Origin: Bacteroidota bacterium | GTDB lineage: Bacteria; Bacteroidota; Bacteroidia; Chitinophagales; BACL12 | NCBI GenBank assembly: GCA_016715425.1 | Contig: JADKAC010000002.1 | Location: forward strand, 171,351 to 235,350 | Direction of reading: 5' to 3' | Length of the DNA stretch: 64,000 nucleotides | Shown: positions 4,898 through 64,000 of the stretch, one piece after another | Numbering within the stretch: the stretch's first letter is position 1 | Layout: every line of letters starts with the position of its first letter | The notes under the pieces: generated by a model | What the model was told of the DNA's origin: nothing | What the model saw: only the letters and a program-made list of their open reading frames with translations | Database searches by the model: none | Position numbers and translations under genes: made by a program

Positions 4898-5752
4898 CTA
4901 TTTTGAAACTTTGCTTGTGAAAGGATATTTTGTACCTGCATACGATTTTAAATCGCAGGTTATTCTACCAACTGATAATTCAGATTCGATACGCACCGGA
5001 ATACGATTGGCATCATCGGTAAACCAAATTGTCATACCCTCTCCTTTCTTAAAAATATCTCCTTCTACTAATAGTGGTTTTACTTTCATGCAATTAAAAG
5101 TTCCTAGTTTGGTTTTATATTGCTCCTTGCCTTCATATCGTATATATAAATTATATACTGTATCATCCACAGCCATCGTTACCGGAATTTTATCTCCGGG
5201 TTTATAAAGGTCAAAATTTAAAGTGCGTGCCCAATAAAAAGAAGACAGTAAGTCAACAGCACAAGGCTCCACATTTTTAATTGTTTTTGTATTTGTCTTA
5301 CCATTTTTCCTGTCTTCAAAAGATATAATAGTATTTGTTTGACGGTTCCATTCATAAGATCTAAAAAAAGAATAACCTCCTTCATTTATATCTCTCAAAA
5401 ATTTTTCACTTTTTAAAGATTCTGGCTGCATCCAAGTTTCCATTTTATCCCGCACTTTAAAAAACCAATCGAACGAACCATAAGAAACCGCTTCCATTAT
5501 AGCATGATACATTTTCTTATTATTCAAATTCGCATCTTGTAATTTAAAATAAACTTCACCAGCTCCAATCCACATTGGGCCTGCATTATAAAACACTTTG
5601 TAAGTTAATGATTCACCGGATTGAAATGAAGTAGTTTCGATAGAACAATTATTTGAATCATCTTGCTGAACAATAGATGTATCTAATGCAGAAATACCTA
5701 CTGTAGCAAAAGCAACAATTGTGATGAAAGCAAGTATTTTTTTTCTATTCAT
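4898..5752 (-). CDS. DUF3108-like secreted protein
   Basis: 284 aa. N-terminal signal or anchor, and FQSGESLTYKVFYNAGPMWIGAGEVYF resembles the DUF3108 signature. It overlaps the upstream gene by 8 nt. Confidence 0.6.
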   Translation of the reverse strand: MNRKKILAFITIVAFATVGISALDTSIVQQDDSNNCSIETTSFQSGESLTYKVFYNAGPMWIGAGEVYFKLQDANLNNKKMYHAIMEAVSYGSFDWFFKVRDKMETWMQPESLKSEKFLRDINEGGYSFFRSYEWNRQTNTIISFEDRKNGKTNTKTIKNVEPCAVDLLSSFYWARTLNFDLYKPGDKIPVTMAVDDTVYNLYIRYEGKEQYKTKLGTFNCMKVKPLLVEGDIFKKGEGMTIWFTDDANRIPVRIESELSVGRITCDLKSYAGTKYPFTSKVSK

Positions 5753-6728
5753 TTCCAGTTTGTTTTAAAAAATTTTTTTTGATTATAAAAGTATATCCCA
5801 GTATTGCCGGTATTATCAAATTCAATAACCATAAACAGGTAGAGGCTGCAAAAACACCAACTGTATTTTCTGAATAAAAGCCACAAAAATATACCGCAAT
5901 ATTCCCTCTCGTAAATAATTCCGCAATAGCAAAGCTCGGTATAATTGTTTGTGCTAAAAATATCAGACCTATAACTAACACACCTTCTCCTACATTTAAA
6001 TGAACTCCGAATAATTTGAGGAAAGCCAAATACTGTGCCGTAAAGACTGAGTAACGAATTGCGGATAAGCCGAGATATCTCCATAAATCTTGATTGTGAT
6101 AACTACCAATTATAGTGATATATGGTAATATCCTACTGAAAAATTTTTTACGTTTAAAGACCTCAATAAAGATGTGCAAATTAAAGTAGGCTGCGAAGAA
6201 AACAATGTCAAGTACTATACAAATACCAATTAGCATCCAGGTTATGTATGTATCAAAAATTGTTTGTGTCAACAAAAAAATAATTAGCGTGATTATACCT
6301 ATCGTTGATGTTACTACAATCTGTCCGAAGCTGCCAATTAAAGTTGCAATAATACTGCTGATACGATGGCGCATAGGCAAATACAATATACGACCTCCAT
6401 ATTCCCCTATTCTATTTGGTGTGAATAATCCTAAGGTAACACCAGTCCACACAGCTTTAAAAGCCTGTATAAATGGTATGTTATAAATTTTTGAAATAAT
6501 ATTTTTCCATTTATAAGATTCCACTCCCCAATTTAAAAGCATTAAAATTGTTACAGAAAATAATAGTAAGAAATCGTTTGAATTAATACTTTCCAACATA
6601 AGTTGCAGTGCAGATTTTACATCACTATTTCCTATCAATTGTTTATAAAGCGCAAAAATCAACAGCCCAAGAATGGCTACCTTTATTAGAATAGAATAAA
6701 CTTGATTTTTTCCTTTAAATAATTTCAA
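5745..6728 (-). CDS. polytopic membrane protein, UPF0104 / lysylphosphatidylglycerol-synthase-TM-like (flippase-like) family
   Basis: 327 aa with about 8 hydrophobic helices. The family call is by overall resemblance only. Confidence 0.55.
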   Translation of the reverse strand: MKLFKGKNQVYSILIKVAILGLLIFALYKQLIGNSDVKSALQLMLESINSNDFLLLFSVTILMLLNWGVESYKWKNIISKIYNIPFIQAFKAVWTGVTLGLFTPNRIGEYGGRILYLPMRHRISSIIATLIGSFGQIVVTSTIGIITLIIFLLTQTIFDTYITWMLIGICIVLDIVFFAAYFNLHIFIEVFKRKKFFSRILPYITIIGSYHNQDLWRYLGLSAIRYSVFTAQYLAFLKLFGVHLNVGEGVLVIGLIFLAQTIIPSFAIAELFTRGNIAVYFCGFYSENTVGVFAASTCLWLLNLIIPAILGYTFIIKKNFLKQTGNE

Positions 6729-8249: not shown

Positions 8250-8272
8250 AACAAAATTAAATAAAATAAATA

Positions 8273-41317: not shown

Positions 41318-42811
41318 TTATTTTTGTACAATTATTTTTTTATTGTAAAACTGATCTTCATGTTGAATAGATAACAGATAAATACCATCTGCCAAATTTT
41401 GAACATTAATTCCTTCTTTTAAATTAGAAACTTCATTTTTTGAATAAACAATTCTCCCTGTTACATCATAGAGTATATATGAATAAGGCAATGCATTTTC
41501 ATCATTTAATTCTAAGTAAATGTTATCACTCGTTGGGTTTGGATACACATTCAAAAAATCCAGTGTACCTGGCTCTTCCAATCCCTTAGTTCCATGCTGA
41601 TAATCAATTCCAAAAATTATTTCTTTTCTGTTCACATTTGTCTTTTTCACTAACTTATTTGCCGAAAAATTTTGCAAAGCAAATAAATTGGACCATGACT
41701 CTTCTGCCCCATCAAAACGTTCGTATAAAAATGCATCGCTTTCATTATACTCATTAACTACACCATTGCTAAAAGAATATTTATAAATCAAACCATACTT
41801 AACATCTGTTAAATCATCAGCACTAAATACCCCATAATAATAGGGTGTATAAGCTTCATCAAGGCCATCAGTATTGTAAGGATAATCATCAACACGATAT
41901 ACATGAACTCCATGTGGATTATTCGCAATCTTCAATATGCTAAGCTTATCACCACCCAGTGAATTTAATGTAAGACTCAAACCAGTCCAGGAATCTGTAT
42001 AAACATAAATACTTTCATTTCCTATAGGTGCACCTGATGTTATTCTATCCATATCGCCATATAATGTTCCATCATTTCCAGTACTTGATTGATCAATTAA
42101 ACTCAAATCAGAATAGGATTCATCTACAATCCAATAACCAATTAATCCGGATTCAACTCCGCTTAATTTCTTACACATATTGGTTTGAATTTCGGATTCT
42201 GTTCTACTTATATCCCATAACCGAACTTCATCTATTTCTCCAATAAAATTATGCGTATCAAATGGTGTTGTTTGTCTGCCAATTGCAGCATGATTACTAT
42301 TATGTATTAATGAGCTCGCAGAACCGTCACCATCAGAATATGTTGTTGGTTGTTCAACACCATTGAAGTAAAAACCAACATCAGATGCTGAATTTGCAAC
42401 TACAGCAATGTGGGTCCACTCATTAGTTAACACTACAGTTGTTGTCATTCTGCCATTTCTGGAAGTTTCTCCTGCACCTGAACCTGTTCCAATTTCAAAT
42501 ATCAATTTCCCCGCATTATCAAATCTTATATAAAATCCATAGTAACTTCCTGAGCTATTATTATCGGATGCAAATACCGCTGAATATGGTGATTCATAAT
42601 CTGCAGGATTCACCCAAGCTTCAAATGTTAGTGGAAAAGCTAAATCATTATATACATCATCCAAATCCGCATAATTTCCAGTGGATCCATCAAACGATAA
42701 TGCGATGCCACTGCCTACATAATTGGATTGTGAAAGGAGTTGAGTAAATGGTAAAATCAAAAATAAAATTGCAGTAAAAAAGAATTTCATAATTATAGGT
42801 TTAGAATTCAA
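41318..42811 (-). CDS. LamG/concanavalin-A-like lectin domain protein with T9SS type-A C-terminal sorting domain
   Basis: FEAWV...FIGEIDEVRLWD LamG pattern. C-terminus VYPNPTSDNIYLEL...GIYLLSIQ...KKIIVQK. The start may be MKFFF at 42790. Confidence 0.8.
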   Translation of the reverse strand: MNSKPIIMKFFFTAILFLILPFTQLLSQSNYVGSGIALSFDGSTGNYADLDDVYNDLAFPLTFEAWVNPADYESPYSAVFASDNNSSGSYYGFYIRFDNAGKLIFEIGTGSGAGETSRNGRMTTTVVLTNEWTHIAVVANSASDVGFYFNGVEQPTTYSDGDGSASSLIHNSNHAAIGRQTTPFDTHNFIGEIDEVRLWDISRTESEIQTNMCKKLSGVESGLIGYWIVDESYSDLSLIDQSSTGNDGTLYGDMDRITSGAPIGNESIYVYTDSWTGLSLTLNSLGGDKLSILKIANNPHGVHVYRVDDYPYNTDGLDEAYTPYYYGVFSADDLTDVKYGLIYKYSFSNGVVNEYNESDAFLYERFDGAEESWSNLFALQNFSANKLVKKTNVNRKEIIFGIDYQHGTKGLEEPGTLDFLNVYPNPTSDNIYLELNDENALPYSYILYDVTGRIVYSKNEVSNLKEGINVQNLADGIYLLSIQHEDQFYNKKIIVQK

Positions 42812-45449: not shown

Positions 45450-48032
45450 ATGAAAAAATTATTTACTTCTCTCACAATTATCACCATGTTGATGATGTCA
45501 TTTTTTACTTACAATTTACAAGCGCAAAACTGGATTAAAACGTATGATGTGCTTCCGGCTATGGACGATGAAGCATCCTGGATTACTACCATTATTCAAA
45601 CTGATGATGATGGATATTTTTTTGCAGGAAGAACTAATTATCCCGGTGCGTATTTTGGGTTTGTTGCAAAAGCAGATGCAAATGGCGATATAATCTGGAT
45701 GGACACACTTTCGAAAGATTACTCGTTTGCAAATGCATATCAGCGTCCCGATGGAAATTATGCAATATCCAAAATTGAAATATTTTATGATTCTGTGTAT
45801 AGAGATGTGTATTCACCATCAGGTACTTTGCTGGATGAAATAATGTTGGATCCAACCGACGGTGATTATTATGATTACAAATCTTTGCGTTCCACTCCCG
45901 ATAATGGATTCGTTGTATTTCATGTAGAAGATGGAATGACTCCAAGTCCTACTCATGAAGTTCAAATGCAAAAATATTCAAGCGCAGGTTTAATGGAATG
46001 GAGTTATACACTTCCTTCCGATTCCATTTATAACTATGGTTTCAATACTGTTGACCCCACCGAAGACGGTTATTTCTATTTTGCCAATATGCAACAACAC
46101 ATTTACCTATGGGTGTATGATTTGGATATTTATGTTTTTAAAACACATATAATAAAAGTGGATCTTGACGGTGAATTAGTATATGATGTATTAATGGATG
46201 ATCGCAGTGTGAATGATATCATTGCTTTGCCCGGCGGTGATAATGTGTTTTTATTAAAAGAACCTGAGACAGATTATGAATCGGTATGGCCTGATATGAC
46301 AAATTTCTATTTACAAAAAAGAAACAGCGCAGGCGATATACTTTGGGAAAAAGATTTTCCTGAGTTTTATGAATATTATCTGGGCAAATTATTACCTATG
46401 GACGATGGCGGATTTGCAGTTACTGTGAATGGACCAATTTACGACAGCACAATTTTTACCAATGGCAATATCAATCTTTTGTTTTTTGATGAGGAAGGGA
46501 ATTTTGAACAACAAAAAATTGTGGAAGATGGAAATCGCTATGAAGTATTTCCCGTAAAAAAAACATCGGATAATGGTTTTATTTTTTGCGGAGATATGAG
46601 AGATACCCTAACATCAATTCCGATAGCCGTATTATTAAAAACAGATTCACTCGGAAATATGGATCGTGTTACCTTAACCGGAAAAGTATTTTATGATGCA
46701 AATGATAATGCAACTTATGATGATACCGATATTGTATTGCCCGGTTTATTTGCAGAAATATTAGATGAAGATATTTATGCGGGAACTAATGAAGATGGAG
46801 AATTTACCCGTTGGATTTATGAACCCGGCACTTATAATATTCAAGTAAGCAATCCAACAGGATTTTATCAAACATCTCCGCTTACAGAATCCTATACAAT
46901 TGTTGTTGATTCGATATCTCAAGTTTTTGATACTTTATATTTTGCAAAATTTGCGGATGTAGATACTACTGATCTGCATATAGAAACAGAAGGTTATCAA
47001 GCGAAACCCGGTTTTACAAATACCTATTGGATAAATATATTTAATGATGAAGTGCTTCCGGCAGATGATATAGATATACAATTAATTTTTGATCCGATAT
47101 TAACGCTTGAATCTATTGTTTATCCAAACATGACTGTAAGTGGTGATACACTTACTATTTCTACAGGAGTTATGAATGGGCTTTCTTATGAATTAAATCC
47201 TATTCAATTTTCCGTTCCGGCAGATACAGCATTAATTGGTGATACACTTACTTTTTATGCAATGGTGCAATCTATTTCAGATGAAATTACTTTAGATAAT
47301 AATTATGATACACTACAAATAGTTATTACAGCTTCTTATGATCCGAATATGAAAACTGCAAATCCCGCAGGTGAAACTGAATTGGGTTTTGTAGATCCTT
47401 CTACCAATCATATTGAATATAAAATTGATTTTCAAAATCTGGGTTCTGATACTGCAATTACAATTGTGGTGGTGGATACACTTACAAATGAAATTGATTA
47501 TTCTTCGTTGCACATGTTGTCTTCCAGTCATAATTATAACATTGATTTTATTTATCCCAATGTTGTTAAATGGACTTTCCCAAATATCAATTTAGTACAT
47601 GCTGCCGCTAACGAACCGGAGAGTCATGGCTACCTAAAATTTGAAGTGGATTTGGTGGAAGGATTAGCAGAAGGAACACAATTTTCAAACACAGCAGAAA
47701 TCTATTTTGATTACAATCCGGCTGTGGTTACACCACCAGCTTTTACTACATTAAAAATATATATACCCGATGCAATTGCAAATGAAAATTTGGTAAGTAA
47801 TATTTTAGCACATCCAAATCCAACATCGGGAAAAATTGTTTTTAATAATCTTCCTCAAAATAATTCAGAAGTATTTGTGTATGATATCAACGGAAAATTG
47901 CATGGTGAATACAGCATTACAGAAAAAGAAAATACCATTGATGTTTCTGCATTGCAAAACGGAAATTATATTTTACAAATCCGACAAAAACAAACCGTGG
48001 TTTATACAGGAAATATTATTGTGGTGAAATAA
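45450..48032 (+). CDS. secreted beta-propeller-like / DUF11-like repeat protein with T9SS type-A sorting domain
   Basis: Signal peptide. Recurring D-(D/N)-G-(Y/F)-hydrophobic blades (DDGYFFAG, DNGFVVF, EDGYFYFA, DGGFAVT, DNGFIFCG). YDPNMK...IEYKIDFQNLGSDTA block. C-terminus HPNPTSGKIVF...GNYILQI...GNIIVVK. Confidence 0.8.
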   Translation: MKKLFTSLTIITMLMMSFFTYNLQAQNWIKTYDVLPAMDDEASWITTIIQTDDDGYFFAGRTNYPGAYFGFVAKADANGDIIWMDTLSKDYSFANAYQRPDGNYAISKIEIFYDSVYRDVYSPSGTLLDEIMLDPTDGDYYDYKSLRSTPDNGFVVFHVEDGMTPSPTHEVQMQKYSSAGLMEWSYTLPSDSIYNYGFNTVDPTEDGYFYFANMQQHIYLWVYDLDIYVFKTHIIKVDLDGELVYDVLMDDRSVNDIIALPGGDNVFLLKEPETDYESVWPDMTNFYLQKRNSAGDILWEKDFPEFYEYYLGKLLPMDDGGFAVTVNGPIYDSTIFTNGNINLLFFDEEGNFEQQKIVEDGNRYEVFPVKKTSDNGFIFCGDMRDTLTSIPIAVLLKTDSLGNMDRVTLTGKVFYDANDNATYDDTDIVLPGLFAEILDEDIYAGTNEDGEFTRWIYEPGTYNIQVSNPTGFYQTSPLTESYTIVVDSISQVFDTLYFAKFADVDTTDLHIETEGYQAKPGFTNTYWINIFNDEVLPADDIDIQLIFDPILTLESIVYPNMTVSGDTLTISTGVMNGLSYELNPIQFSVPADTALIGDTLTFYAMVQSISDEITLDNNYDTLQIVITASYDPNMKTANPAGETELGFVDPSTNHIEYKIDFQNLGSDTAITIVVVDTLTNEIDYSSLHMLSSSHNYNIDFIYPNVVKWTFPNINLVHAAANEPESHGYLKFEVDLVEGLAEGTQFSNTAEIYFDYNPAVVTPPAFTTLKIYIPDAIANENLVSNILAHPNPTSGKIVFNNLPQNNSEVFVYDINGKLHGEYSITEKENTIDVSALQNGNYILQIRQKQTVVYTGNIIVVK

Positions 48033-48052: not shown

Positions 48053-48259
48053 AATAATTTCACCCCTTCGGGGTTCGGTTATTTTTTATATTGGTAGTTA
48101 TAAACCCAACCCCGAAGGGGTGAAATTTTTATAGAATAAACAAATTCAACCCCCAACCACCCAACCCAACCCCGAAGGGGTGTCATTATTAAAGAACAAA
48201 AATCCCAACCCCACCCACCGAGCCCCGAAGTGGTGACATAATTCTAGGGTGACATAATT
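48053..48259. repeat. left REP cluster: four GC-rich REP hairpins (core CACCCCTTCGGGGTG-like)
   Basis: Copies at 48053-48078 (+ orientation), 48108-48126, 48168-48190 and 48221-48243 (all three inverted), plus a partial GGTGACATAATT at 48248-48259. Confidence 0.85.
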
Positions 48260-48300: not shown

Positions 48301-48762
48301 ATGGCAGGTACCTACACACAATTACATATTCAGATTGTCTTTGCAGTAAAAGGCAGGAAGAACCTCATCTCAAATACATGGAAAGAGGAATTGAATAAAT
48401 ACATTTCCGGAATAATAACAGGTAAAGAACAAAAATCCATTATCGTAAATGGTATGTCCGATCATATTCATGTATTTGTTGGATTAAAACCATCTATGCC
48501 TATTTCAGATTTAGTGAGAGATATTAAAAACAATTCAACCAATTTTATAAATGATAATAATTGGTTAAAGAGCGATTTTTCCTGGCAGGAAGGTTATGGT
48601 GATTTCTCCTATTCTCACTCCCATGTCAGCCGGGTATATAATTATATTTTAAATCAGGAGGCACATCATAAAAAAAGAAGTTTTAAAGAGGAATATATAG
48701 GTCTCTTAAAAAAATTTCAAATTGAATACAACGAAAAATATTTATTTGATTGGATTGAATAA
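48301..48762 (+). CDS. REP-associated tyrosine transposase (RAYT; IS200/IS605-like Y1 HUH transposase)
   Basis: 153 aa. HUH motif DHIHVFV, WQEGYGDFSYS block, and catalytic Tyr context YNYILNQEAHH (Y-x3-Q). Flanked by inverted REPs. Confidence 0.85.
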   Translation: MAGTYTQLHIQIVFAVKGRKNLISNTWKEELNKYISGIITGKEQKSIIVNGMSDHIHVFVGLKPSMPISDLVRDIKNNSTNFINDNNWLKSDFSWQEGYGDFSYSHSHVSRVYNYILNQEAHHKKRSFKEEYIGLLKKFQIEYNEKYLFDWIE

Positions 48763-50720: not shown

Positions 50721-52265
50721 TTAATTCGCCCAGCTATCTCTATCCAAACTTCTGTATTGAATTGCTTCGGCGATATGTTCAGGTAAAATTTCATCACTGC
50801 CTGCAAGGTCAGCAATTGTTCTTGACACCTTTAAAATTCTATCATAGGCTCTTGCAGAAAGTCCAAGTTTATCCATTGCTTTTGTAAGCAAGTTTTGTCC
50901 AACATTATTTATGATACAAACTTCCTTTGCCATTTTAGTACTCATCTGCGCATTGCAATGCACATCGGGAAAATCTTTAAATCGCAATTCTTGAATTTCT
51001 CTTGCTTTAATCACACGTTCACGAATATTTGCACTTGGCTCAGATAAAATCACAGAAGATAATTCCCGAACCGGAACAGGTGTTACTTCCACATGTAAAT
51101 CTATTCTGTCTAATAAAGGTCCTGATATGCGGTTCAAATATTTTTGAACTACACCCGGTGCACAAACACAATCTTTTTCTGGATGATTATAATATCCGCA
51201 AGGGCAAGGATTCATACTAGCAACAAGCATAAAACTGGCGGGATATTCTACCGAAAATCTCGCACGACTGATAGTAACTTTCCTATCCTCCATTGGTTGC
51301 CGCAATACCTCTAACACGTTTCTTTTAAACTCGGGAAGTTCATCTAAAAACAATACTCCATTATGTGCTAAAGAAATTTCACCAGGCTGCGGATTATTAC
51401 CTCCACCTACTAAAGCGACATCACTCACCGTATGATGCGGCGAACGAAAAGGCCGGATATATAATAAGGAAGAATTACCCGGCAACTTACCAGCAACTGA
51501 ATGAATTTTTGTGGTCTCAAGAGCTTCATGTAAAGTGAGTGGTGGCAAAATGGTGGGAAGCCTTTTTGCCAGCATTGTTTTACCGGCACCCGGTGGTCCT
51601 ATTAAAATTGCATTATGCCCTCCGGAAGCAGCAATCTCCAAAGCTCGTTTAATATTTTCCTGACCTTTCACATCAGAGAAATCTAAATCAGAATTACCGA
51701 TACTGTAAGCAAACTCTTCCCGAGTATTTACAATCACTTGTTCCAATCCTGTTCCAGTACCTAAAAATCCAACCACATCTTTTAATTGAGTGGCGCCATA
51801 CACTTCTATATTATTTACAATGGCGGCTTCCCGGGCATTAGATTCCGGTAATATTAATTTTGTAAATCCTTCTTCTCTAGCCTGAATAGCAATTGGCAAA
51901 GCACCTTTCGCCGGAAGTATGGTTCCATCCAAAGAAAGCTCGCCGAGAAACATTACTTTTTCCAGCGACTCTTCATTTATCTGGCCTGTTGCACCTAAAA
52001 TTCCGATAGCCATAGGCAAATCGAATGAGGTACCTTCCTTTCTGATATCGGCAGGTGCAAGATTAATTACCACGTTAGTGCGAGGCATATAAAAACCATT
52101 GTGACGAATAGCAGTTTGAATTCTTTGCCAGCTTTCTTTAACTGCATTATCAGGCAATCCCACAATATATCCTTTCAACTCACCACCACCACCGGTATTT
52201 ACTTCGATGGTAACCGTAACTGCATTCACACCCTGAACAGTGCTTCCAAAGGTTTTAACTAACAT
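50721..52265 (-). CDS. YifB/ComM-family Mg-chelatase-like AAA+ ATPase
   Basis: N-terminal Lon-protease-like S5 fold domain, Walker [20 protein letters not shown], and a C-terminal ChlI-like domain. Confidence 0.9.
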
Positions 52266-52617: not shown

Positions 52618-55600
52618 ATGAACAAGTTTAAGAATCTATGGACAGGCCTATTTTTTCTATTGTCAGCATCAATAGGCACAATACAGGCGCAGGTTACAGC
52701 GGACTTTGTGGCGGATGACTTAGTGGTCTGCCCGGAGTTCCGGTGATATTTACCAATCTCAGTACATATCCCGCAGGTTCCAGTCCTACTTATCTGTGGA
52801 GTTTCCCCAGTGGCTTCGCTTCTTCCTTAACTGAAGCAAACCCAACAGTTTATTATTATACTCCGGGAACTTACAGTGTAACACTAACAACAAGTGTTGC
52901 CGGAACAGGAAGTGATGTAGAAACAAAAACTGCATATATCACTGTGGTAACTCCGCCGGATGCAAACTTCACTTACACTATCCCTGATTTATGTAATCAA
53001 ATGGTGGTAAATTTCACGAATACCTCTGTGGCTGGCAGTGCTCCTATTACATCGAAATTGTGGGATTTTGATGATGCCACTTTTAGTGCATTGTCCAATC
53101 CGATAAAGACTTTTACTTCGGAAAATACATTCAATGTAATTCTATTTGTTACGGATGCAAATGGATGTAGTGATAATGTTACCGTACCTGTAACTACACT
53201 TGCACCTGTTGAAAGTGCTATTTCCAGCACAGGTTCTATTTTTTCGTGTGGCCTTGCAATAGCTCCAACAATTTTAGCTATTACTTCTGAAGGCACAGCT
53301 CCTTACACTTACAGTTGGGATTATGGCAACGGCACTAGCTCTATTCTTCCTTCTTCTGTAGTAAATTATTCTGATTGCGGCACATATGATATCACCTACA
53401 CAGTTACAGATGCTAATGGTTGTTCACTTACAAATTCCTATGATGACTATATAGAAATTTCTTGTCCGGAAGTAGATTTCAGCATGTCTGACGATACAGT
53501 TTGTCTGGCATCTACTGCAAGCTTTATTAATCTTTCAGATCCCGGTGCAGTTTCTTATTACTGGCAATTTAATTATCCAACAGCGCTGGCAACAAGCACA
53601 GAAGAAAATCCGGTTGCTGAATTTGTTGCTGCGGGTATGCGCATAATCAGACTTACCGTAACTTATCCCGGTGGATGTACTGCATATCATCAAGATACCA
53701 TTCAAGTAGTTCCGAGACCTGCCATAACAGGAATAGCAGCGAGCGATTCAACAGGTTGCGAAATTCCATTTGTCACTACACTTACTCCGCTTGGCCTTAC
53801 GGGTACTGGCCCTTATACTTTTTTATGGGAATCCGGTGGCATGACTTCTACAGATTCTGCTGCTACATTTACCTATAATGATTATATAAATTATACAGTT
53901 TCGCTCACCATTACAGATGCAAATGGATGTTCTGTTTTTTACACCTTTATCGGTTTTATAAAAATCAAGAAACCGACTAATGCATTTTCTGCAACACCTA
54001 TTGAAGGATGTGCGCCTTTAAAAGTAACATTTACGAATACTAGTTCTTCCACCTATGTTCCGTTATCCTATTATGTTTGGAATTACGGCGATGGAACAAT
54101 AGATACCACTTATTCTTTAGGCTCCCACAATCATTGGTTTATGGTTGCAGGAACCTATAATGTAACTATGACTTTATATACGGTTGATGGTTGTCCGAAA
54201 ACAAGTAATCTCTATATTACTTTAGGAAATGAGGTTGCATATTTTGAAATTATCAATGATGATGACCCTACATGTAATCCGGTAGAAATTGATAATTTAT
54301 CTTTTGGTGCAGATGAAACAACTATTGATTGGGGAGATGGCACTACAAGTTTTTTATACCCGGTACATTAGATACTTCACATGTGTATCCGGCAGCGGAT
54401 ACAGCTACATATATTATTACTTTAATTGCTGAAGACCGTGGTTGTATATCTACTTGGGTGGATACAATTACAATTCTGCCTGTTATAACTATCGTCACTA
54501 CAACATGGAATTGCGACAACCCTCTCGAATTTTATTATGTGGTTGACACCAGTGTGGTAACCGGAGATTTTTGCTGGGACTTCGGTTCGGGTGATGTGTT
54601 TTGCAATCAAGTTGCGGTGAGTTATACCTATCCCAGGCCAGGAACATACAGTGGTGAAATCACAACTCTTGACCCAATTGAATATGAAGGCTGTGAATTA
54701 GTCCAAACCTTTAGCTCTCTTGTACCTGATAATGATTTTTCTTTCGATATAAATACTGTCGGTGGTTGTGGAAGTTTTGAATATAGTATTGCTTCAAATG
54801 TTGCTCCCGACTTCCCTTCTGAATTAACTTATACTTGGAATATTGGTCCTTCTTCTATTTCCGGTTTTACTGATGTAATTACTGATACAAGTTTTTTCAA
54901 TTATACTTTTCCGGAAGAAGATGCCTATCCAATTGAAATGACAATTAATGATGTGAATGGTTGTGTGTATTCTTCAATGGATACTATAATTATTAGTGGT
55001 GCAGTTGCATTATTTAATATTGATTCGATTGTTGGTTGTAGTCCGTTTACTGTTTATGTAAGTGATGCCTCTACATTAATTGATGATGCTGGTGGTGATA
55101 TTTCTATAGAAAGTTACGAATGGAATTTCAGCGGTGGAACTTGCCCAACTTATTTTGGAATTAGTCCACCGCCTTGCACATTTGCTACAGGTACTCATAG
55201 TGTAACTCTTACAATTACCGACAATGGTGGTTGCGAATTTTCTTATACCGAAGAAATAGATGTGGTGAGTGATGTGATTGCAAGTTTTATTGCTGATGAA
55301 CTTGCATGTAATTCAACTGAGCCCTTATACTTTTCAAATACTTCTACTGGGGATATCACTGATGTTACTTGGGATTTTGGTGATGGATTTACTTCAACAG
55401 ACTTTTCTGCATTGCATCCTTATGCTATTGCTGGCGCTTATACAGTGAGCTTAACTGTTAGTGATGCGTTTGGTTGTAGCGATGTCCAAGTGCAAAATAT
55501 AAATGTAGTACTCGACAGTATTTATGCTGGCTTTGATGTTACTTATTTAACAGCTTCTGCATGTCCGCCAATTCCAATACAACTCGCCAATACTTCAACA

Positions 55601-58600
55601 GGTGATTATATTGATTTCTGGTGGGATGTAGAAAGAGAAACCGGAATTTATACTTATACACTTGATACCATTATTCTCACTTATACTTTACCGGGTGACT
55701 ATGATGTTTCCATTTATGTTACTGGCGCAACAGGTTGTATTGATACATTAACAATTGAAAACGCATTATACATTCCCGGACCTACAGGCACAATGGAATA
55801 TACACCTATGATGGATTGTACTCCGGCAGAAATCACTTTTGATTTTAGTGATTTAACCGCAGACTTAACGTATGTAGATTTTGGTGATGGTGATACAATT
55901 CTAGTTACTGGTGATGCAACATACAATTACGCCGAAGAAGGTGTGTATTGCCCTACTTTAATTTTGATTGATGCCTCCGGATGTTCTTTCCAAATTGCAT
56001 GTGATTCTTCAATTACAATTTATCAAACTCATGATATTGATATCACTGTTTCTGATACCGGTTTATGTCTTGGTGAAATTCTAACTATTTACAATGCAAG
56101 TATTGGTTCTCCATTAAATCCGATTGAAGGTTATTTAGTGGATTATGGTGATGGCTCTCCTGTAATTCCGTTAGCGAGTTTTGATTCTTTAACTTATACA
56201 TACTCCACTTCAGGCACTTATGTATTGAATGTATTTACGATGAGTGATGTGGCTTGTAGTGATACTATTCAATATGAAATAAATGTGTTCTCTGAACCGG
56301 AAGCCGGTGCTGATATTTCACCCATTAGTGGTTGCTATCCATTGGATGTAAACTTTACAATTACTGATTTAATTGCTGATGTTGCAATACTTGATTATGG
56401 TGATGGAATCATAGATACTATTGCGGGTGATATTTCTCACACTTACACAACCTTTGGAATTTTTCATCCTACGCTTACTTTAATTAACGGAAGTGCATGT
56501 GCTGTTGAAATAGAATTTGCTGATGCGGTTCATGTGTATTTTCCTCCTACTGCCGGATTAATTATTCCCGATACAATTGCTTGCTCAGGTGAACAATTAA
56601 TTTTTATAAATAATAGTAGTGATACTTCTTTCAGTCTTATTACAAATTACACTTTAGATTTTGGTGATGGTTCCACTCCATATTCTTCTGACGTAATGGA
56701 TACTGTATATCATGCATTTACTACCGATGGTTCTTATGTCTCCACTTTTATTGTTGAGAATTCTGCGGGTTGTTCAGACACTTTAATTTTTAATACTTAT
56801 GCAGATCAATTACCTGTAGGTGCATTGAATATTTCTCCTTTAGAAGGTTGTGTTCCGCTTGAAGTAAATTTTGATGTTGATGATTTAATAGCGGATGAAG
56901 CAATCATAGATTTTGGTGATGGAAATTCTGATACTATTACTTCAAGTATTGTTTATACATATTTAAATCCCGGCGATTTTACACCAATATTTTATCTGAA
57001 TAATGCAAATGGTTGTACCACTGTTTTAACCTATGAAACTATTGATGTTGAATTAATACCAACAGCAGGTTTTATAATTTCAGATACCACAATTTGTATC
57101 TCCACACCGGTTTCAATTATCAATACTTCTTTTGATACTATCGTTTCTCCAATAACATCTTATGCTATAAAATATGGCGATGGCACTGTGGATGTAATTG
57201 CAGATTTTGATACGCTTGAGTATACTTATGCAAGTCCGGGCACTTATAACATAACCGTGATTGCACAAAACTCTGCAGGTTGTCGTGATACTATAATTCA
57301 TGCTGTAGAAGTGTTTGATATTCCGCTTGCAACATTTAGTCTTTTACCAATTACAGGATGTATTCCTTTCGATGTAGATTTTGATTTAGATATTGTAACA
57401 GCAGATGAAATGCTATTGTATTACGGTGATGGATTGATGGATACAATTACCGGCGACACTTCGCATATTTATTCCACCGCAGGAAGTTTTGAACCTTATC
57501 TTTTAATTTCAAATAATGCGGGTTGTTTTGATTCAATTGCATTTGATGTGGTCGAAGCAGGAATAACTCCAATCGCTGATTTCACAATCACCGATTCTAC
57601 AATTTGTTTTGGAGAACCAATTGAAATAACAAATAATGCTTGGGATACAACCCTCTCACCAATCATTTCTTACACAATTGATTTTGGCGATGGTTCCGTT
57701 TCTACTTCTGCAACTTTCACTTCTCTTACACATAATTATTCTTCAACTGGAGATTTTATAATTACAATGGCAGTAGAAAATAATCTTGGTTGTGGTGATA
57801 TAATTTCTAAAAATATTACTGTTGGTGAAATGCCTTTTGCAACTCTTGCTCTCGATCCACTTGAAGGTTGTTTGCCTCTCGATATTACTTTCGATTTTGA
57901 TGCAATTGCCGCTGATGAAATTATTATTTCTTTCGGTGATGGAAATATGGATACTGTTTCTGGTGATGTAACTTATACTTATGTTGACGCCGGAACATTC
58001 TCTCCAACTGTTTCTTTATTAAATGCAAATGGTTGCGCATTCGATGTAAATGTTTCTGACGCAATTAATGTTGGAATAACTCCAATCGCAGATTTCACTA
58101 TTACTGATTCTACAATTTGTTTTGGTGATGATATTGAAATAACAAACAACGCATGGGACACAACATTATCTCCTATCACTTCTTACACAATTGATTTTGG
58201 TGATGGCACTGTTTCTACTTCTGCAACTTTCACTTCTCTTACACATAATTATTCTTCGACTGGAGATTTTATAATTACAATGGAAGTAGAAAATAATTAT
58301 GGTTGTGGTGATATTATTTCTAAAAATATTACTGTTGGTGAAATGCCTTTTGCAACTCTTGCTCTCGATCCACTTGAAGGTTGTTTGCCTCTCGATATTA
58401 CTTTCGATTTTGATGCAATTGCCGCTGATGAAATTATTATTTCTTTCGGTGATGGAAATATGGATACTGTTACCGGTGATGTAACTTATACTTATGTTGA
58501 CGCCGGAACATTCTCTCCAACTGTTTCTTTATTAAATGCAAATGGTTGCGCATTCGATGTAAATGTTTCTGACGCAATTAATGTCGGAATAACTCCAATC

Positions 58601-61600
58601 GCCGATTTCACAATCACTGATTCTACAATTTGTTTTGGAGAACCAATTGAAATAACAAATAATGCTTGGGATACAACCCTCTCACCAATCATTTCTTACA
58701 CAATTGATTTTGGCGATGGTTCCGTTTCTACTTCTGCAACTTTCACTTCTCTTACACATAATTATTCTTCGACTGGAGATTTTATAATTACAATGGAGTA
58801 GAAAATAATTATGGTTGTGGTGATATTATTTCTAAAAATATTACTGTTGGTGAAATGCCTTTTGCAACTCTTGCTCTCGATCCACTTGAAGGTTGTTTAC
58901 CTCTCAACATCACTTTTGATTTTGATGCAATTGCCGCCGATGAAATAATAATTTCTTTCGGTGATGGAAATATTGATACAGTTTCAGATGATATAACTTA
59001 TACTTATGTTGATGCCGGAATATTCTCTCCAACCGTTTCTTTACTAAATGCAAATGGTTGTGCTTTCGATGTAATTGTTTCGGATGATATAAATGTTGGA
59101 ATAACTCCAATCGCTGATTTCACTATTACTGATTCTACAATTTGTTTTGGGGAACCAATTGAAATCACAAACAATGCTTGGGATACAACCCTCTCTCCAA
59201 TCATTTCTTACACAATTGATTTTGGTGATGGAACTATTTCTACTTCTGCAACTTTCACTTCGCTCACACATAATTATTCAACAACAGGTGATTATTCTAT
59301 TACTCTTTCAGTAGAAAATAATTTAGGTTGCGATGATATAATTTCTAAAAATATTACTGTCGGCGAAATGCCTTTTGCAACTCTTGCTCTCGATCCTTTA
59401 GAAGGTTGTTTACCACTTGATATCACTTTTGATTTTGATGCAATTGCTGCTGATGAAATAATTATTTCTTTCGGTGATGGAATTATGGATACCGTTACCG
59501 GTGATATAACTTATACTTATGTTGATGCCGGAATTTTCTCTCCAACTGTTTCATTATTAAATGCAAATGGCTGCGCTTTCGATGTTATTGTTTCTGATGC
59601 AATAAATGTCGGTATCACTCCAATCGCAGATTTCACTATTACTGATTCTACAATTTGTTTTGGAGAACCAATTGAAATAACAAATAATGCTTGGGATACA
59701 ACCCTCTCACCAATCATTTCTTACACAATTGATTTTGGTGATGGTTCTATTTCTACTTCTGCAACATTCACTTCGCTCACACATAATTATTCAACAACCG
59801 GTGATTATTCTATTACTCTTTCAGTAGAAAATAATTTAGGTTGCGATGATATAATTTCTAAAAATATTACTGTCGGCGAAATGCCTTTCGCAACTCTTGC
59901 TCTCGATCCACTCGAAGGTTGTTTACCTCTCGATATCATTTTTGATTTTGATGCAATTGCCGCTGATGAAATTATTATTTCTTTCGGTGATGGAAATATG
60001 GATACTGTTACCGGTGATGTAACTTATACTTATGTTGACGCCGGAACATTCTCTCCAACTGTTACTTTATTAAATGCAAATGGTTGTGCTTTCGATGTAA
60101 TTGTTTCTGATGATATTAATGTTGGAATAACTCCAATCGCAGATTTCACTATTACTGATTCTACAATTTGTTTTGGGGAACCAATTGAAATCACAAACAA
60201 TGCTTGGGATACAACCCTCTCTCCAATCATTTCTTACACAATTGATTTTGGTGATGGAACTATTTCTACTTCTGCAACTTTCACTTCGCTCACACATAAT
60301 TATTCAACAACAGGTGATTATTCTATTACTCTTTCAGTAGAAAATAATTTAGGTTGCGATGATATAATTTCTAAAAATATTACTGTTGGTGAAATGCCTT
60401 TTGCAACTCTTGCACTCGATCCACTCGAAGGTTGTTTACCTCTCGATATCATTTTTGATTTTGATGCAATTGCCGCTGATGAAATTATTATTTCTTTCGG
60501 TGATGGAAATATGGATACTGTTACCGGTGATGTAACTTATACTTATGTTGACGCCGGAACATTCTCTCCAACTGTTACTTTATTAAATGCAAATGGTTGT
60601 GCTTTCGATGTAATTGTTTCTGATGATATTAATGTTGGAATAACTCCAATCGCAGATTTCACTATTACTGATTCTACAATTTGTTTTGGGGAACCAATTG
60701 AAATCACAAACAATGCTTGGGATACAACCCTCTCTCCAATCATTTCTTACACAATTGATTTTGGTGATGGCACTATTTCTACTTCTGCAACTTTCACTTC
60801 TCTCACACATAACTATTCTTCAACCGGTGATTTTATAATTACTCTTTCAGTAGAAAATAATCTTGGTTGTGATGATTTAATTACTAAAGAAATTATTGTC
60901 AATGAAATTCCTGAAGCTGTAATAGATTTTCTTCCCATCTCAGGTTGCTATCCTTTGGATGTGCTTTTTGAAATCAGTGGATTAATCGCTGACTCTGCAT
61001 ACATAAATTTTGGTGATGGTAGCGGAACAGTAACTACGGATGATGTGATGCATACTTTTACTTCTTCCGGAACTTACATTCCTGAATTAACCCTTATAAA
61101 TAATAATGGCTGCACAGTTGTATTAACTGAAACAGATCCTATTCATGTTGCAGCTCCTCCGGTTGCCAATATGTATTTATCTGATTCTTCCATTTGTGCC
61201 GGTGAATCAATTACAATTTATAATTCTTCAACGGATACAATTGATGCGCCGATAACTGATATTTATCTTGATTATGGTGATGGTGCAATTGCTTATACTG
61301 CTTCATCCCTTGATTCTATAAATCATATTTATGCAAGCGACGGATTATTCACAATCGAGTTAACTGTAACCAATAGTCTTGGATGTGTATCCAGCCATAA
61401 TATTCCTTTATCTATAGCCGCTATCCCGACCGCAGTTTTTGATGTTGAACCTGTGGTGGGATGCGGTACTTTATTAACTACGTTTAATATAATTTCTTCC
61501 ACTGCCGATAGTTTATTTTTGAATACCGGCACTGAAATTATTTATGTTGCGGGCTCTTCAATTAATTATTTCTATAACACTCCGGGAGTATATTCTCCTG

Positions 61601-62949
61601 AAATTATGTTACTGAATACCACCGGATGTTCTGCTGAATTAGATGCTGAAGATTCTTTAATTGTAAGTTATTCTCCCGATGCAATTATGGCACTGAGTGA
61701 TACTATGCCTTTCTGTTCGGGTGATGAAATTTTCATTATTAATTTAAGTATTGATACGATTGCGGATTTATTAATTAATCCAATTGATAATTATACTATT
61801 CAGGTAAATGGAACTGCAATGTATTCCGGCTCAACTATGGATTCTATATTATTTAATCTTACCACAGCGGGTGATTATTGGATTACATTAATTACTTCAA
61901 ATTCATGGGGCTGTCTGGATTCTACTTCTGCAGTTATTACTGTAACTCAAACACCAAATGCAATAGCAGGATTAAATGAAAATATTTGCCCGGGCACTGC
62001 ATTACTTTTAGATGGCTCTGCAAGTTCCGGTGGAACAAATTATTTATGGTCGCCTGCCGGATTATTTGTAAATAATTCCGTTGCTCAACCACTCGGAACT
62101 TTCCCAACTTCTACAATGGTGTATCTGGAATATTCAAATGCATTTTGTTCGGATGTAGATTCTGTTTTGGTAAATGTGTTAACCGATTTGGAATTAAATG
62201 CCTGGCCGGATACTGCAATTTGTATTGGCGAATCGGTTCAAATTTATAGTCAATATGAAGCAGATGATTTACCAGTTTCTGTGGTTTGGTTAAATGGTGA
62301 TTATTTATCCAGTACTCTTGTAAGCAATCCTGTTTCAACTCCGCTGAATACAATTACATATACTGTTTCCGCCACTTGTGGTGACCTTGTTGATTATGAA
62401 GATGTAACCATCGTTGTAAATTCTTTGCCCACTGTTGTAGCTAACGATACTATGAATGCATATTACGGACAAACATTTAGTTTAACTTCCGCTGCATCGG
62501 GTAATGGACCATTTACCTATAGTTGGACACCAACAGAATATTTAGCTTGCAGCGATTGTCAAAACACAAATGCAACACCGCCATCCGATGCTACATATTT
62601 TATTACTGTGGTAGATGAAAATAATTGTATCGCAATGGATTCTGTGTATTTAAGATTGGGATATGATTGCGGACAATATCTTGGTTTGCCAAATTTATTA
62701 TCTCCAAATAATGATGGTTTCAATGATGAATTCCATTATCAGTCAGATGCAATTCAGGTATTATCTTACTTCAGAGTGTATGATCGTTGGGGACGATTAA
62801 TGTTCGAATCAACAGATTTATTTGGTTCTTGGGATGGCACTTACAATGGCACACTTTGCGATCCCGGTGTATATGTATATTCAATCCAAGGCTCTTGTTT
62901 CGATGGAGAAGTATTTATTAATTCCGGAAATATAACCCTCGTTAAATAA
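52618..62949 (+). pseudogene. giant PKD-repeat surface protein with T9SS type-B sorting domain, interrupted by three single-base frame breaks (about 3,440 codons if repaired)
   Basis: Signal peptide MNKFKNLWTGLFFLLSASIGTIQAQ at 52618, then ORFs 52743..54371, 54329..58801 and 58855..62949 in shifting frames with continuous PKD-like repeats ([WF]-x-[FY]-GDG...Y...GxY...D.NGC). C-terminal LLSPNNDGFNDEF...YDRWGRLMF...WDGTYNG...GVYVY. Confidence 0.85.
57560..60875 (+). repeat. in-frame tandem array, about 6.5 near-identical copies of a 513-bp (171-codon) PKD didomain unit
   Basis: Unit starts (GGAATAACTCCAATCGC...) at 57560, 58073, 58586, 59098 (one base short), 59611, 60124 and 60637. Antisense shadow ORFs recur at an exact 513-bp period. 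Confidence 0.95.
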
Positions 62950-63513
62950 CAAAATAAATTTCATTAATAAATTGATTAACTATTTAAATAAATTATCATG
63001 ATAACTTTTTCACTAACAATAATGCTCCTGCTCCCAGCCTTAATAGAAATAAATTTGAAACCCAAACTTCAAATAATCATAGTTGAAGAAGAAGATATTT
63101 TTAAATAAATTTTAAAAAAAAAAAATTTAAGAACTCACTCACCAAATTTATAATCCCAACCATACATAAGGATCTCTGCATGAAAACAAAACATGAAAAA
63201 TCCCTACCCTTCCATCGGAGCAAAAAAGGCATTATAAAAGCTTGCTTACAAAACAAAGTTGGCTTTTGTGCGTGAGAGCTGCGAAGAAAAGAATCCAGTC
63301 AGCCACAACTTAGAATTTAAAAATCTGATATTACCACAATTTTAATAATCACCCCAAACCAACTTTAACTCGGCTGACCTTATTCTTTTCATGCAAAAAG
63401 ACAACTGCAAGTTTTGTTGCTTGCCTGCCTGCCGTCAAACTGTCTAAAAACTACCCACACATTTTTGTTGAATAGTAACTTCAATTTATAAGTTATGATT
63501 TGCAATTTTATAT

Positions 63514-64000
63514 ATGCAATACATACAAGGAACAAATAGGAATCAGGCCGTATTGTTTAATGAAAGTTTAGATCAAATTATCAGCTTTGATAATGAAGTT
63601 CGTTTAATTGATTTATTTGCAGAGAGCATTATAATAGAAGATTTTGGTTTCGTGCAGAAACTAAATACTGAAGGTCGCCCTGCATACAATCCAAAGGATT
63701 TGCTTAAACTTTTATTTACGGTTATCTCAACAGCATGCGCTCATCAAGAGTGTTGGAAAAGAGTGCAGACGCAACATCGAAGTAATGTGGCTTATGAAAC
63801 AACTTGTGCCAGATCATAATACAATTTCAAACTTCCGCAGAGATAATGAAAAAGCTATTCGCAAAGTTTTCAGATACACCGTAAGCATTGCAAAAGAATT
63901 TGATTTAATCGGCGGTAAATTAATTGCCGGCGACAGCACAAAACTGCGTGCTCAAAACAGTAAGAAAAACAATTTCAACCAAAAGAAAATTGAACGCCAT
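63514..64000 (+). mobile_element. IS1182-family-like transposase gene, 5' part; two frame breaks; continues beyond window
   Basis: MQYIQGTNRNQAVLFNESLDQIISFDNEVRLIDLF...GRPAYNPKDLLKL, then in other frames FIYGYLNSMRSSRVLEK and ECRRNIEVMWLMKQLVPDHNTISNFRRDNEKAIRKVF...GDSTKLRAQNS. This is the typical IS1182 / DUF772 N-terminal region. Confidence 0.8.

Follow-up and report, generated by a model that had tools for sequence, protein, structure and literature searches.

A probably old and recombining PKD-didomain repeat of strain-variable length in a giant gene with a type IX sorting domain from an uncultured Bacteroidota bacterium

How does a gene come to hold a run of near-identical units inside a longer series of worn copies of the same unit, and does such a run still change in length? 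This question is raised by a tandem array in a 64,000-nucleotide stretch of a Bacteroidota genome (assembly GCA_016715425.1, contig JADKAC010000002.1, positions 171,351 to 235,350 of the forward strand; hereafter the window, with position 1 at its first letter). The array consists of 513-bp units, each encoding two PKD domains, and lies within a single gene of more than 10 kb, interrupted in this assembly, whose product ends in a sorting domain of the type IX secretion system (T9SS). The initial annotation, made from the letters alone, had described it as a very recent amplification. We consider it probable that the array is instead an old tandem repeat whose units undergo non-allelic recombination, that the gene encodes a T9SS fibre of variable length, and that it is intact in the organism.

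A repeat search of the window gave seven in-register copies with start-to-start spacings of 513, 513, 512, 513, 513 and 513 bp, the geometry already described in the initial annotation (seven starts 513 bp apart and one unit 1 bp short), while Tandem Repeats Finder (TRF), run with a maximum period of 500, called no tandem repeat because the 513-bp period exceeds that maximum. Unit coordinates are given throughout in the register of the first, or A, domain (Table 1). Pairwise, the six full units (U1–U6) are 87–96% identical in DNA and 90–99.4% identical in protein over their 171 aa, and the longest perfectly identical tract shared by two of them measures 245 nt. U4–U6 are each other's closest relatives. 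The proteins encoded by the last two full copies had been called almost identical, and U5 and U6 indeed differ at only 1–2 of 171 residues, depending on the register (99–99.4% identical), with 19 nt differences between them.

Each unit joins an A domain of 88 aa to a B domain of 83 aa, and since the two are only 28–33% identical, neighbouring domains are always dissimilar even though the units are near-identical. Both halves are PKD domains. On the three pieces into which the open reading frame (ORF) is broken here, the Pfam family PF18911 (PKD_4) scored 136.6, 355.9 and 305.1 bits (cutoff 27) and PF00801 (PKD) 76–242 bits (cutoff 23.5); consistently with these matches, an AlphaFold2 (AF2) model of one didomain was all-beta, with a mean pLDDT of 92.3, a pTM of 0.68 and short linkers, and Foldseek superposed each half on solved PKD domains, such as that of ColG (4aqo; rmsd 1.8 Å, TMt 0.87, 32% identity), and also matched PrtV PKD1. 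Hidden Markov models (HMMs) built on the A and B halves of the array units, from which the domain labels derive, gave the order B A B A B A B, then (A B)x6 A, then B A B A across residues 1054–3110 (~55775–61944). Domains inside the array scored 173–183 with these models, and the flanking A/B pairs on both sides were 32–43% identical to array units, so that the diverged alternation noted earlier on either flank holds in both order and identity. A homologous-protein search with one unit returned two weak matches only and no family context, and a scan of metagenome contigs with the didomains upstream of the array brought up no relative. Two cysteines are invariant in every A (C16/C78) and every B (C104/C159) domain, in young and old copies alike; this suggests that they may form one disulfide per domain, or bonds between domains, as reported for the Aureispira protein GhpA.

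Restoring three single bases, which are discussed below, joins the pieces into one product of 3444 aa with a terminal stop only (G+C ~35%), comprising a signal peptide, ~37–40 PKD/Ig-like domains and a T9SS type B sorting domain. Signal peptide cleavage was judged by eye to fall between MNKFKNLWTGLFFLLSASIGTIQA and Q at the N-terminus, whereas the sorting domain was recognised at the extreme C-terminus by both PF13585 (48.3 bits, cutoff 27) and TIGR04131 (43.3 bits, cutoff 35). Pfam recognised no distinct N-terminal ligand-binding domain, the N-terminus also being made of PKD-like domains. These features show the array region to be the central stalk of a single very large protein, secreted or at the cell surface, and the signal peptide together with the type B C-terminal domain bears out the earlier suggestion of a surface fibre.

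We searched for relatives by exact-protein look-up of the upstream neighbour, a divergently transcribed Mg-chelatase-like gene (50721–52265, minus strand; PF13541 ChlI, PF01078 Mg_chelatase), and obtained ten contigs of the same species (L001–L010), 97.7–99.9% identical to the window. Three long ones (L001–L003) span the gene. Units were counted in these and in the window by BLAST of one unit, all counts being taken from metagenome-assembled contigs and not from spanning reads. The window holds 6 full + 0.6 units (3444 codons), L002 5 + 0.6 units (3273 codons, or 3444 − 171), L001 4 + 0.6 units (3102 codons, or 3444 − 342), and L003 one unit, one 374-bp unit and a further 2 + 0.6 (~4.3 units). 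Over the 5' 4.9 kb of the gene the same four assemblies show only 15–26 mismatches in 4911 nt (99.5–99.7% identical), and the number of units therefore changes within very short evolutionary times. The variability between strains that the initial annotation had considered probable is thus found among same-species long contigs, with 6.6, 5.6, 4.6 and ~4.3 units. All seven shorter contigs end 47–593 nt into the array; breaks are expected where short reads cannot cross, and these seven are independent evidence of a genuine repeat. L004–L010 are presumably Illumina assemblies, and the JADJ-prefixed assemblies presumably Nanopore and Illumina metagenome-assembled genomes from activated sludge.

The age of the units was approached through synonymous divergence (dS) and the ratio of nonsynonymous to synonymous divergence (dN/dS), both calculated by the Nei-Gojobori method. 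Between units, dS was 0.15–0.48 (mean 0.32) and dN/dS 0.04–0.22 (mean 0.15); between strains, over the 5' 4.9 kb of the gene, dS was 0.008–0.013 and dN/dS 0.15–0.27. The units thus stand 15–50 times further apart at synonymous sites than the strains do, and are therefore older than the strain split by that factor in synonymous distance. This result largely refutes the view of the initial annotation, a sudden and very recent tandem amplification within this lineage, set among old copies. Such a burst would agree with the two-tier pattern of array units 90–99% identical in protein and flanking pairs 32–43% identical to them, and with the mutual closeness of U4–U6, but even U5 and U6 are 19 nt apart, identical tracts reach no further than 245 nt, and the boundaries and homogenised copies of the repeat are common to a sister species; we find it hardly credible. 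The units are under purifying selection, as is the rest of the gene (dN/dS ~0.15), and the dN/dS range of 0.04–0.22 led us to reject positive selection at the variable positions.

The sister species is represented by L011, from an uncultured Chitinophagales bacterium, which carries a syntenic orthologue, 79% identical in amino acids across the first 1636 codons; synonymous sites between it and the window are saturated. The old didomains upstream of the array (55775–57559) have 1:1 orthologues there, at 74% aa identity, and both the junction from old B to A and that from A to old B lie at the same residues in the two species. In L011 a 100-N scaffold gap follows unit 1 + 88 nt, and the copy number is at least 1.6 units; a single unit was rejected as a description of this locus because the gap sits exactly at that point. 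The start of its second unit is identical to its own first unit at 55/55 positions and the A segment after the gap at 59/60, whereas both segments are only 63–77% identical to any unit of the window. Since boundaries are shared and each species has its own homogenised copies, the repeat (at least A-B-A) predates the species split. From these comparisons we infer a separate homogenisation in each lineage, which would amount to concerted evolution of an old repeat.

Exchange between units was apparent within the array itself. Across U1–U6, 327 of 903 informative site pairs failed the four-gamete test, and in a PHI-type permutation analysis the incompatibility of neighbouring sites was lower than in 2000 permutations (p ≤ 0.0005); the mosaic signal was likewise present in the 18 full units pooled from the four assemblies. 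Units of other strains are patchworks of the variants seen in window units, with 1–16 private sites per 513 in each. Unit 1 differs between strains at 13–57 of 384–513 sites, the adjacent upstream 910 nt at 1–16. In L004 and L010, unit 1 carries 25 and 11 sites, respectively, absent from any unit 1 of the long-read assemblies, while 5 and 0 sites are absent from all units. Mosaic recombination among units, claimed earlier from a small set of variable positions, is thereby significant, and together with the differences in unit count among same-species assemblies it agrees with the claim that recombination is ongoing. A mechanism of the diversity-generating retroelement (DGR) type was dropped, most differences between units being synonymous and common to several of them.

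Divergence on the far side of the array followed another pattern. Over the 3' 2.3 kb of the gene (60603–62949), the window is ~5% diverged from L001–L003, which differ from one another by 1.3–3%, unlike the 5' 4.9 kb, which is only ~0.3% diverged. The window strain seems to have a different allele at the 3' end of the gene, the array marking a boundary for recombination.

Three 1-bp deletions divide the gene, as it stands in the window, into four reading frames (Table 1). The last of these deletions, in U3 (ATGGAAGTAG -> ATGG-AGTAG), creates a stop at 58799–58801 and splits the frame into ORFs 54329–58801 and 58855–62949; the initial annotation had seen the 1-bp-short unit, which is real, and had overlooked the break in the ORF and its probable origin as a sequencing error. 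Contig L005 (GCA_049290595.1) is 99.86% identical to the window over 15.7 kb, and the two differ in this interval by exactly three indels, all 1-bp homopolymer deletions (C4, C4 and T7, at 48104, 52731 and 54350); the longer runs are also found in other short contigs. The deletion at 48104 is intergenic (C4->C3 in the window compared with L004, L005 and L006) and speaks for a long-read error profile, at ~1 indel per 5 kb in the window. The deletion in U3 is beyond the reach of the short contigs; it is private to the window assembly, and L001 and L002 keep the frame in every unit. Judging from these comparisons, the three ORF-breaking deletions are most likely long-read homopolymer errors, and for this reason the organism probably has an intact gene. 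Because the broken ORFs probably reflect such errors, automated annotation would wrongly call the gene a pseudogene or three separate genes.

Several observations weigh against an old, recombining repeat in an intact gene. The gene is disrupted in three of the four long assemblies, in a different way in each, and this could mean real decay: besides the window, L001 has a private TCA->TGA nonsense change at gene nt 8262, and the second unit of L003 has lost 139 bp out of frame (L003:3610-3868, gene nt 5424–5797). Long-read assemblers can collapse or expand arrays, and short-read polishing with multi-mapping can create artificial mosaics. The sister-species evidence consists of short segments on either side of a 100-N gap. 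Finally, cargo of the type B T9SS usually has an adjacent cognate PorP/SprF-like gene, as known from Flavobacterium johnsoniae and from ghpB, and no partner gene of the PorP/SprF type was found in the 1 kb downstream, although it could be encoded elsewhere in the genome.

If the disruptions were real, the locus would be a decaying pseudogene: the protein would no longer be made here, and the changes in copy number would be neutral recombination in a dead gene. The three frame breaks within one gene of the window speak for this, as do the nonsense codon of L001 and the out-of-frame deletion of L003, but L005, essentially the same strain, is without frameshifts 1 and 2, and L002 encodes an intact product of 3273 aa. 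Moreover, dN/dS values of 0.15 in the array and 0.15–0.27 between strains point to purifying selection, and the lesions of the window are all 1-bp deletions in base runs, of the same kind as the intergenic one at 48104. We regard decay as unlikely. A second alternative places the fault in assembly or polishing, which would make the length of the array and its fine mosaic artificial and leave a true locus fixed in copy number, maybe at a different one; we hold this to be very unlikely. Deletions of the long-read homopolymer type in the window and private lesions in the other long assemblies of the species lend it some weight, whereas a duplicated-consensus artefact would not be expected to give units that differ by 4–13% and share no identical tract longer than 245 nt. 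Likewise, the independent assemblies, four in number, differ by whole units in frame (3444, 3273 and 3102 codons), the first 194 nt of U1 match L005 at 194/194 positions, shuffled variants of unit 1 occur in L004 and L010 as well, and the array edge is where seven other contigs end.

In the reading we prefer, that of an old tandem repeat under non-allelic recombination, unequal crossing-over and short-tract gene conversion between units would act repeatedly on the array. Such recombination would keep the units of one species far more alike than orthologous units of different species, and would reshuffle mostly synonymous variants, drawn from a common pool, into mosaics. Whole 171-residue units would be gained and lost, strains ~0.3% apart in the 5' part of the gene carrying roughly 4 to 6.6 of them, and the length of the fibre would step by one A+B didomain, estimated at ~7–8 nm on the assumption of ~3.5–4 nm per PKD domain. 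This is an ordinary, well-documented case of a known phenomenon, met here in an uncultured environmental bacterium; recombination-driven, length-variable surface proteins, familiar from pathogens, are thereby extended to type IX secretion and to a lineage of uncultured environmental bacteria. Read as a PCR ladder with 513-bp steps, the locus could be used to tell strains apart as a natural marker, and it illustrates how long-read metagenomics resolves variation that the short-read contigs of the species do not span.

Directly 3' of the PKD gene, 63100–64000 (+) contains IS-type (insertion sequence) transposase fragments over three reading frames, with the motifs YGYLNSMRSSRVLEK and NIEVMWLMKQLVPDHNTISNFRRDNEKA, which represent either a decayed IS or further indel errors. 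Upstream, an IS200-like Y1 transposase gene (153 aa; 48301–48762, +) is also present in L002 and L004–L005, truncated in L006–L009 and absent from L001, and L003 has a DDE_Tnp_1 insertion in this interval instead; mobile-element content next to the locus therefore differs between strains. Two further T9SS cargo genes lie nearby, at 41318–42811 (−) and 45450–48032 (+). One product is of the LamG type and the other a DUF7619 protein, and the annotations of orthologous loci give both a Por_Secre_tail (type A) domain at the C-terminus; the 860-aa gene of the two is split into three ORFs in L001. A scan for promoters and terminators found no excess over shuffled sequence.

Table 1 Features of the interrupted PKD gene and its repeat array (positions in the window).
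Feature	Position	Strand	Length, evidence or remarks
Interrupted gene, ~10.3 kb	52618-62949	+	ORFs, reconstruction, Pfam and NCBIfam
Sec-type signal peptide MNKFKNLWTGLFFLLSASIGTIQAQ	52618-52692	+	read by eye from sequence
Frameshift 1, CCCC -> CCC	52731 (52729-52733)	+	L004, L005, L006 and L010 all with extra C
Frameshift 2, T7 -> T6	54350 (54350-54355)	+	comparison with L005 and other short contigs
Older diverged domains, order B A B A B A B	55775-57559	+	A/B HMM scores 44-75; 38-43% identity to array units
High-identity array, 6 full 513-bp A+B units and a seventh A domain (~6.6 units)	57560-60890	+	repeat search, BLAST, A/B HMMs
U1	57560-58072	+	513 bp
U2	58073-58585	+	513 bp
U3	58586-59097	+	512 nt, 1 bp short
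Frameshift 3, GGAAGT -> GGAGT, in U3	58797 (58796-58798)	+	in-frame units in L001 and L002
U4	59098-59610	+	513 bp
U5	59611-60123	+	513 bp
U6	60124-60636	+	513 bp
U7, partial	60637 to ~60890	+	A domain only; similarity collapses beyond
Older diverged domains, order B A B A	60891-61944	+	A/B HMMs, identity to array units
Cys-containing Ig-like repeats of the C-terminal region, no Pfam family above threshold	61945-62685	+	translation
T9SS type B sorting domain (CHU_C / Bac_Flav_CTERM) and stop codon	62686-62949	+	PF13585, TIGR04131

Concerted evolution of tandem domain repeats is well known in bacterial surface proteins, for example in alpha C/Rib of group B streptococci. The present array resembles them in that its units are more alike within a genome than between species, form mosaics and are gained or lost whole; it differs in coming from an uncultured environmental population known from metagenome assemblies, whereas those systems were described in clinical isolates.

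Among T9SS substrates, GhpA of Aureispira and SprB of Flavobacterium johnsoniae are likewise giant proteins with dozens of Ig-like repeats that form cell-surface filaments, and a filament is what we would expect here. By NCBI/GTDB placement, Aureispira (Saprospiraceae) falls within the broad group to which the Chitinophagales label of L011 also belongs. With Foldseek, the didomain model matched fragments of GhpA best (PDB 9flw, 9flp and others; E 1.3e-7, TM 0.57–0.59), at only 18–23% identity to the unit; phmmer against the PDB matched collagenase PKD domains and no GhpA, the part of the window downstream of the gene has no ghpB/ghpC (PorP/PorE) genes, and no SprB-repeat family appeared among the Pfam matches at E ≤ 0.01. 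Membership of either group was rejected, the likeness being one of fold, with no sequence homology to GhpA and no SprB repeat; by analogy, the protein may nevertheless work like a filament of the GhpA or SprB type. GhpA forms the heptameric grappling hook of Aureispira, and its hooks are reported to be uniform in length (bioRxiv 10.1101/2024.01.29.577165), whereas the protein described here varies.

The closest parallel in behaviour is offered by the periscope proteins (SasG/Aap, Rib, Sgo_0707, CdrA, Esp), surface proteins with a stalk of highly similar folded domains in tandem, an extended rod that projects a functional domain at the N-terminus. Their repeats exceed 50 aa, are at least 80% identical and vary in number between strains, their high DNA identity being thought to drive intragenic recombination (Whelan et al. 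2021, PMC8201768). Units of 171 aa with 90–99.4% identity fall within this size and identity range, and assemblies of near-identical strains carry 6.6, 5.6, 4.6 and ~4.3 of them. The G5-E repeat of SasG is also a unit of unlike domains, discussed as a way round inter-domain misfolding (PMC8201768), much as the unit here pairs unlike domains and leaves neighbours ~30% identical. The differences are that our protein belongs to the Bacteroidota and ends in a T9SS type B C-terminal domain, whereas periscope proteins have an LPXTG or T1SS/T5SS anchor (type I or type V secretion system); that its repeats are PKD domains with lower DNA identity (87–96%) and substantial synonymous divergence; and that it is without an N-terminal ligand-binding domain recognisable by Pfam. 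Tentatively, and as a possibility we rate well below even, the periscope principle might operate on T9SS-anchored fibres of environmental Bacteroidota, the reach of a SprB/GhpA-like PKD filament being tuned in 171-residue A+B steps within the natural population of a Chitinophagales-like, uncultured bacterium, with length variants coexisting or replacing one another between treatment plants; the hetero-didomain would then keep neighbouring domains ~30% identical and yet permit recombination at the level of DNA.

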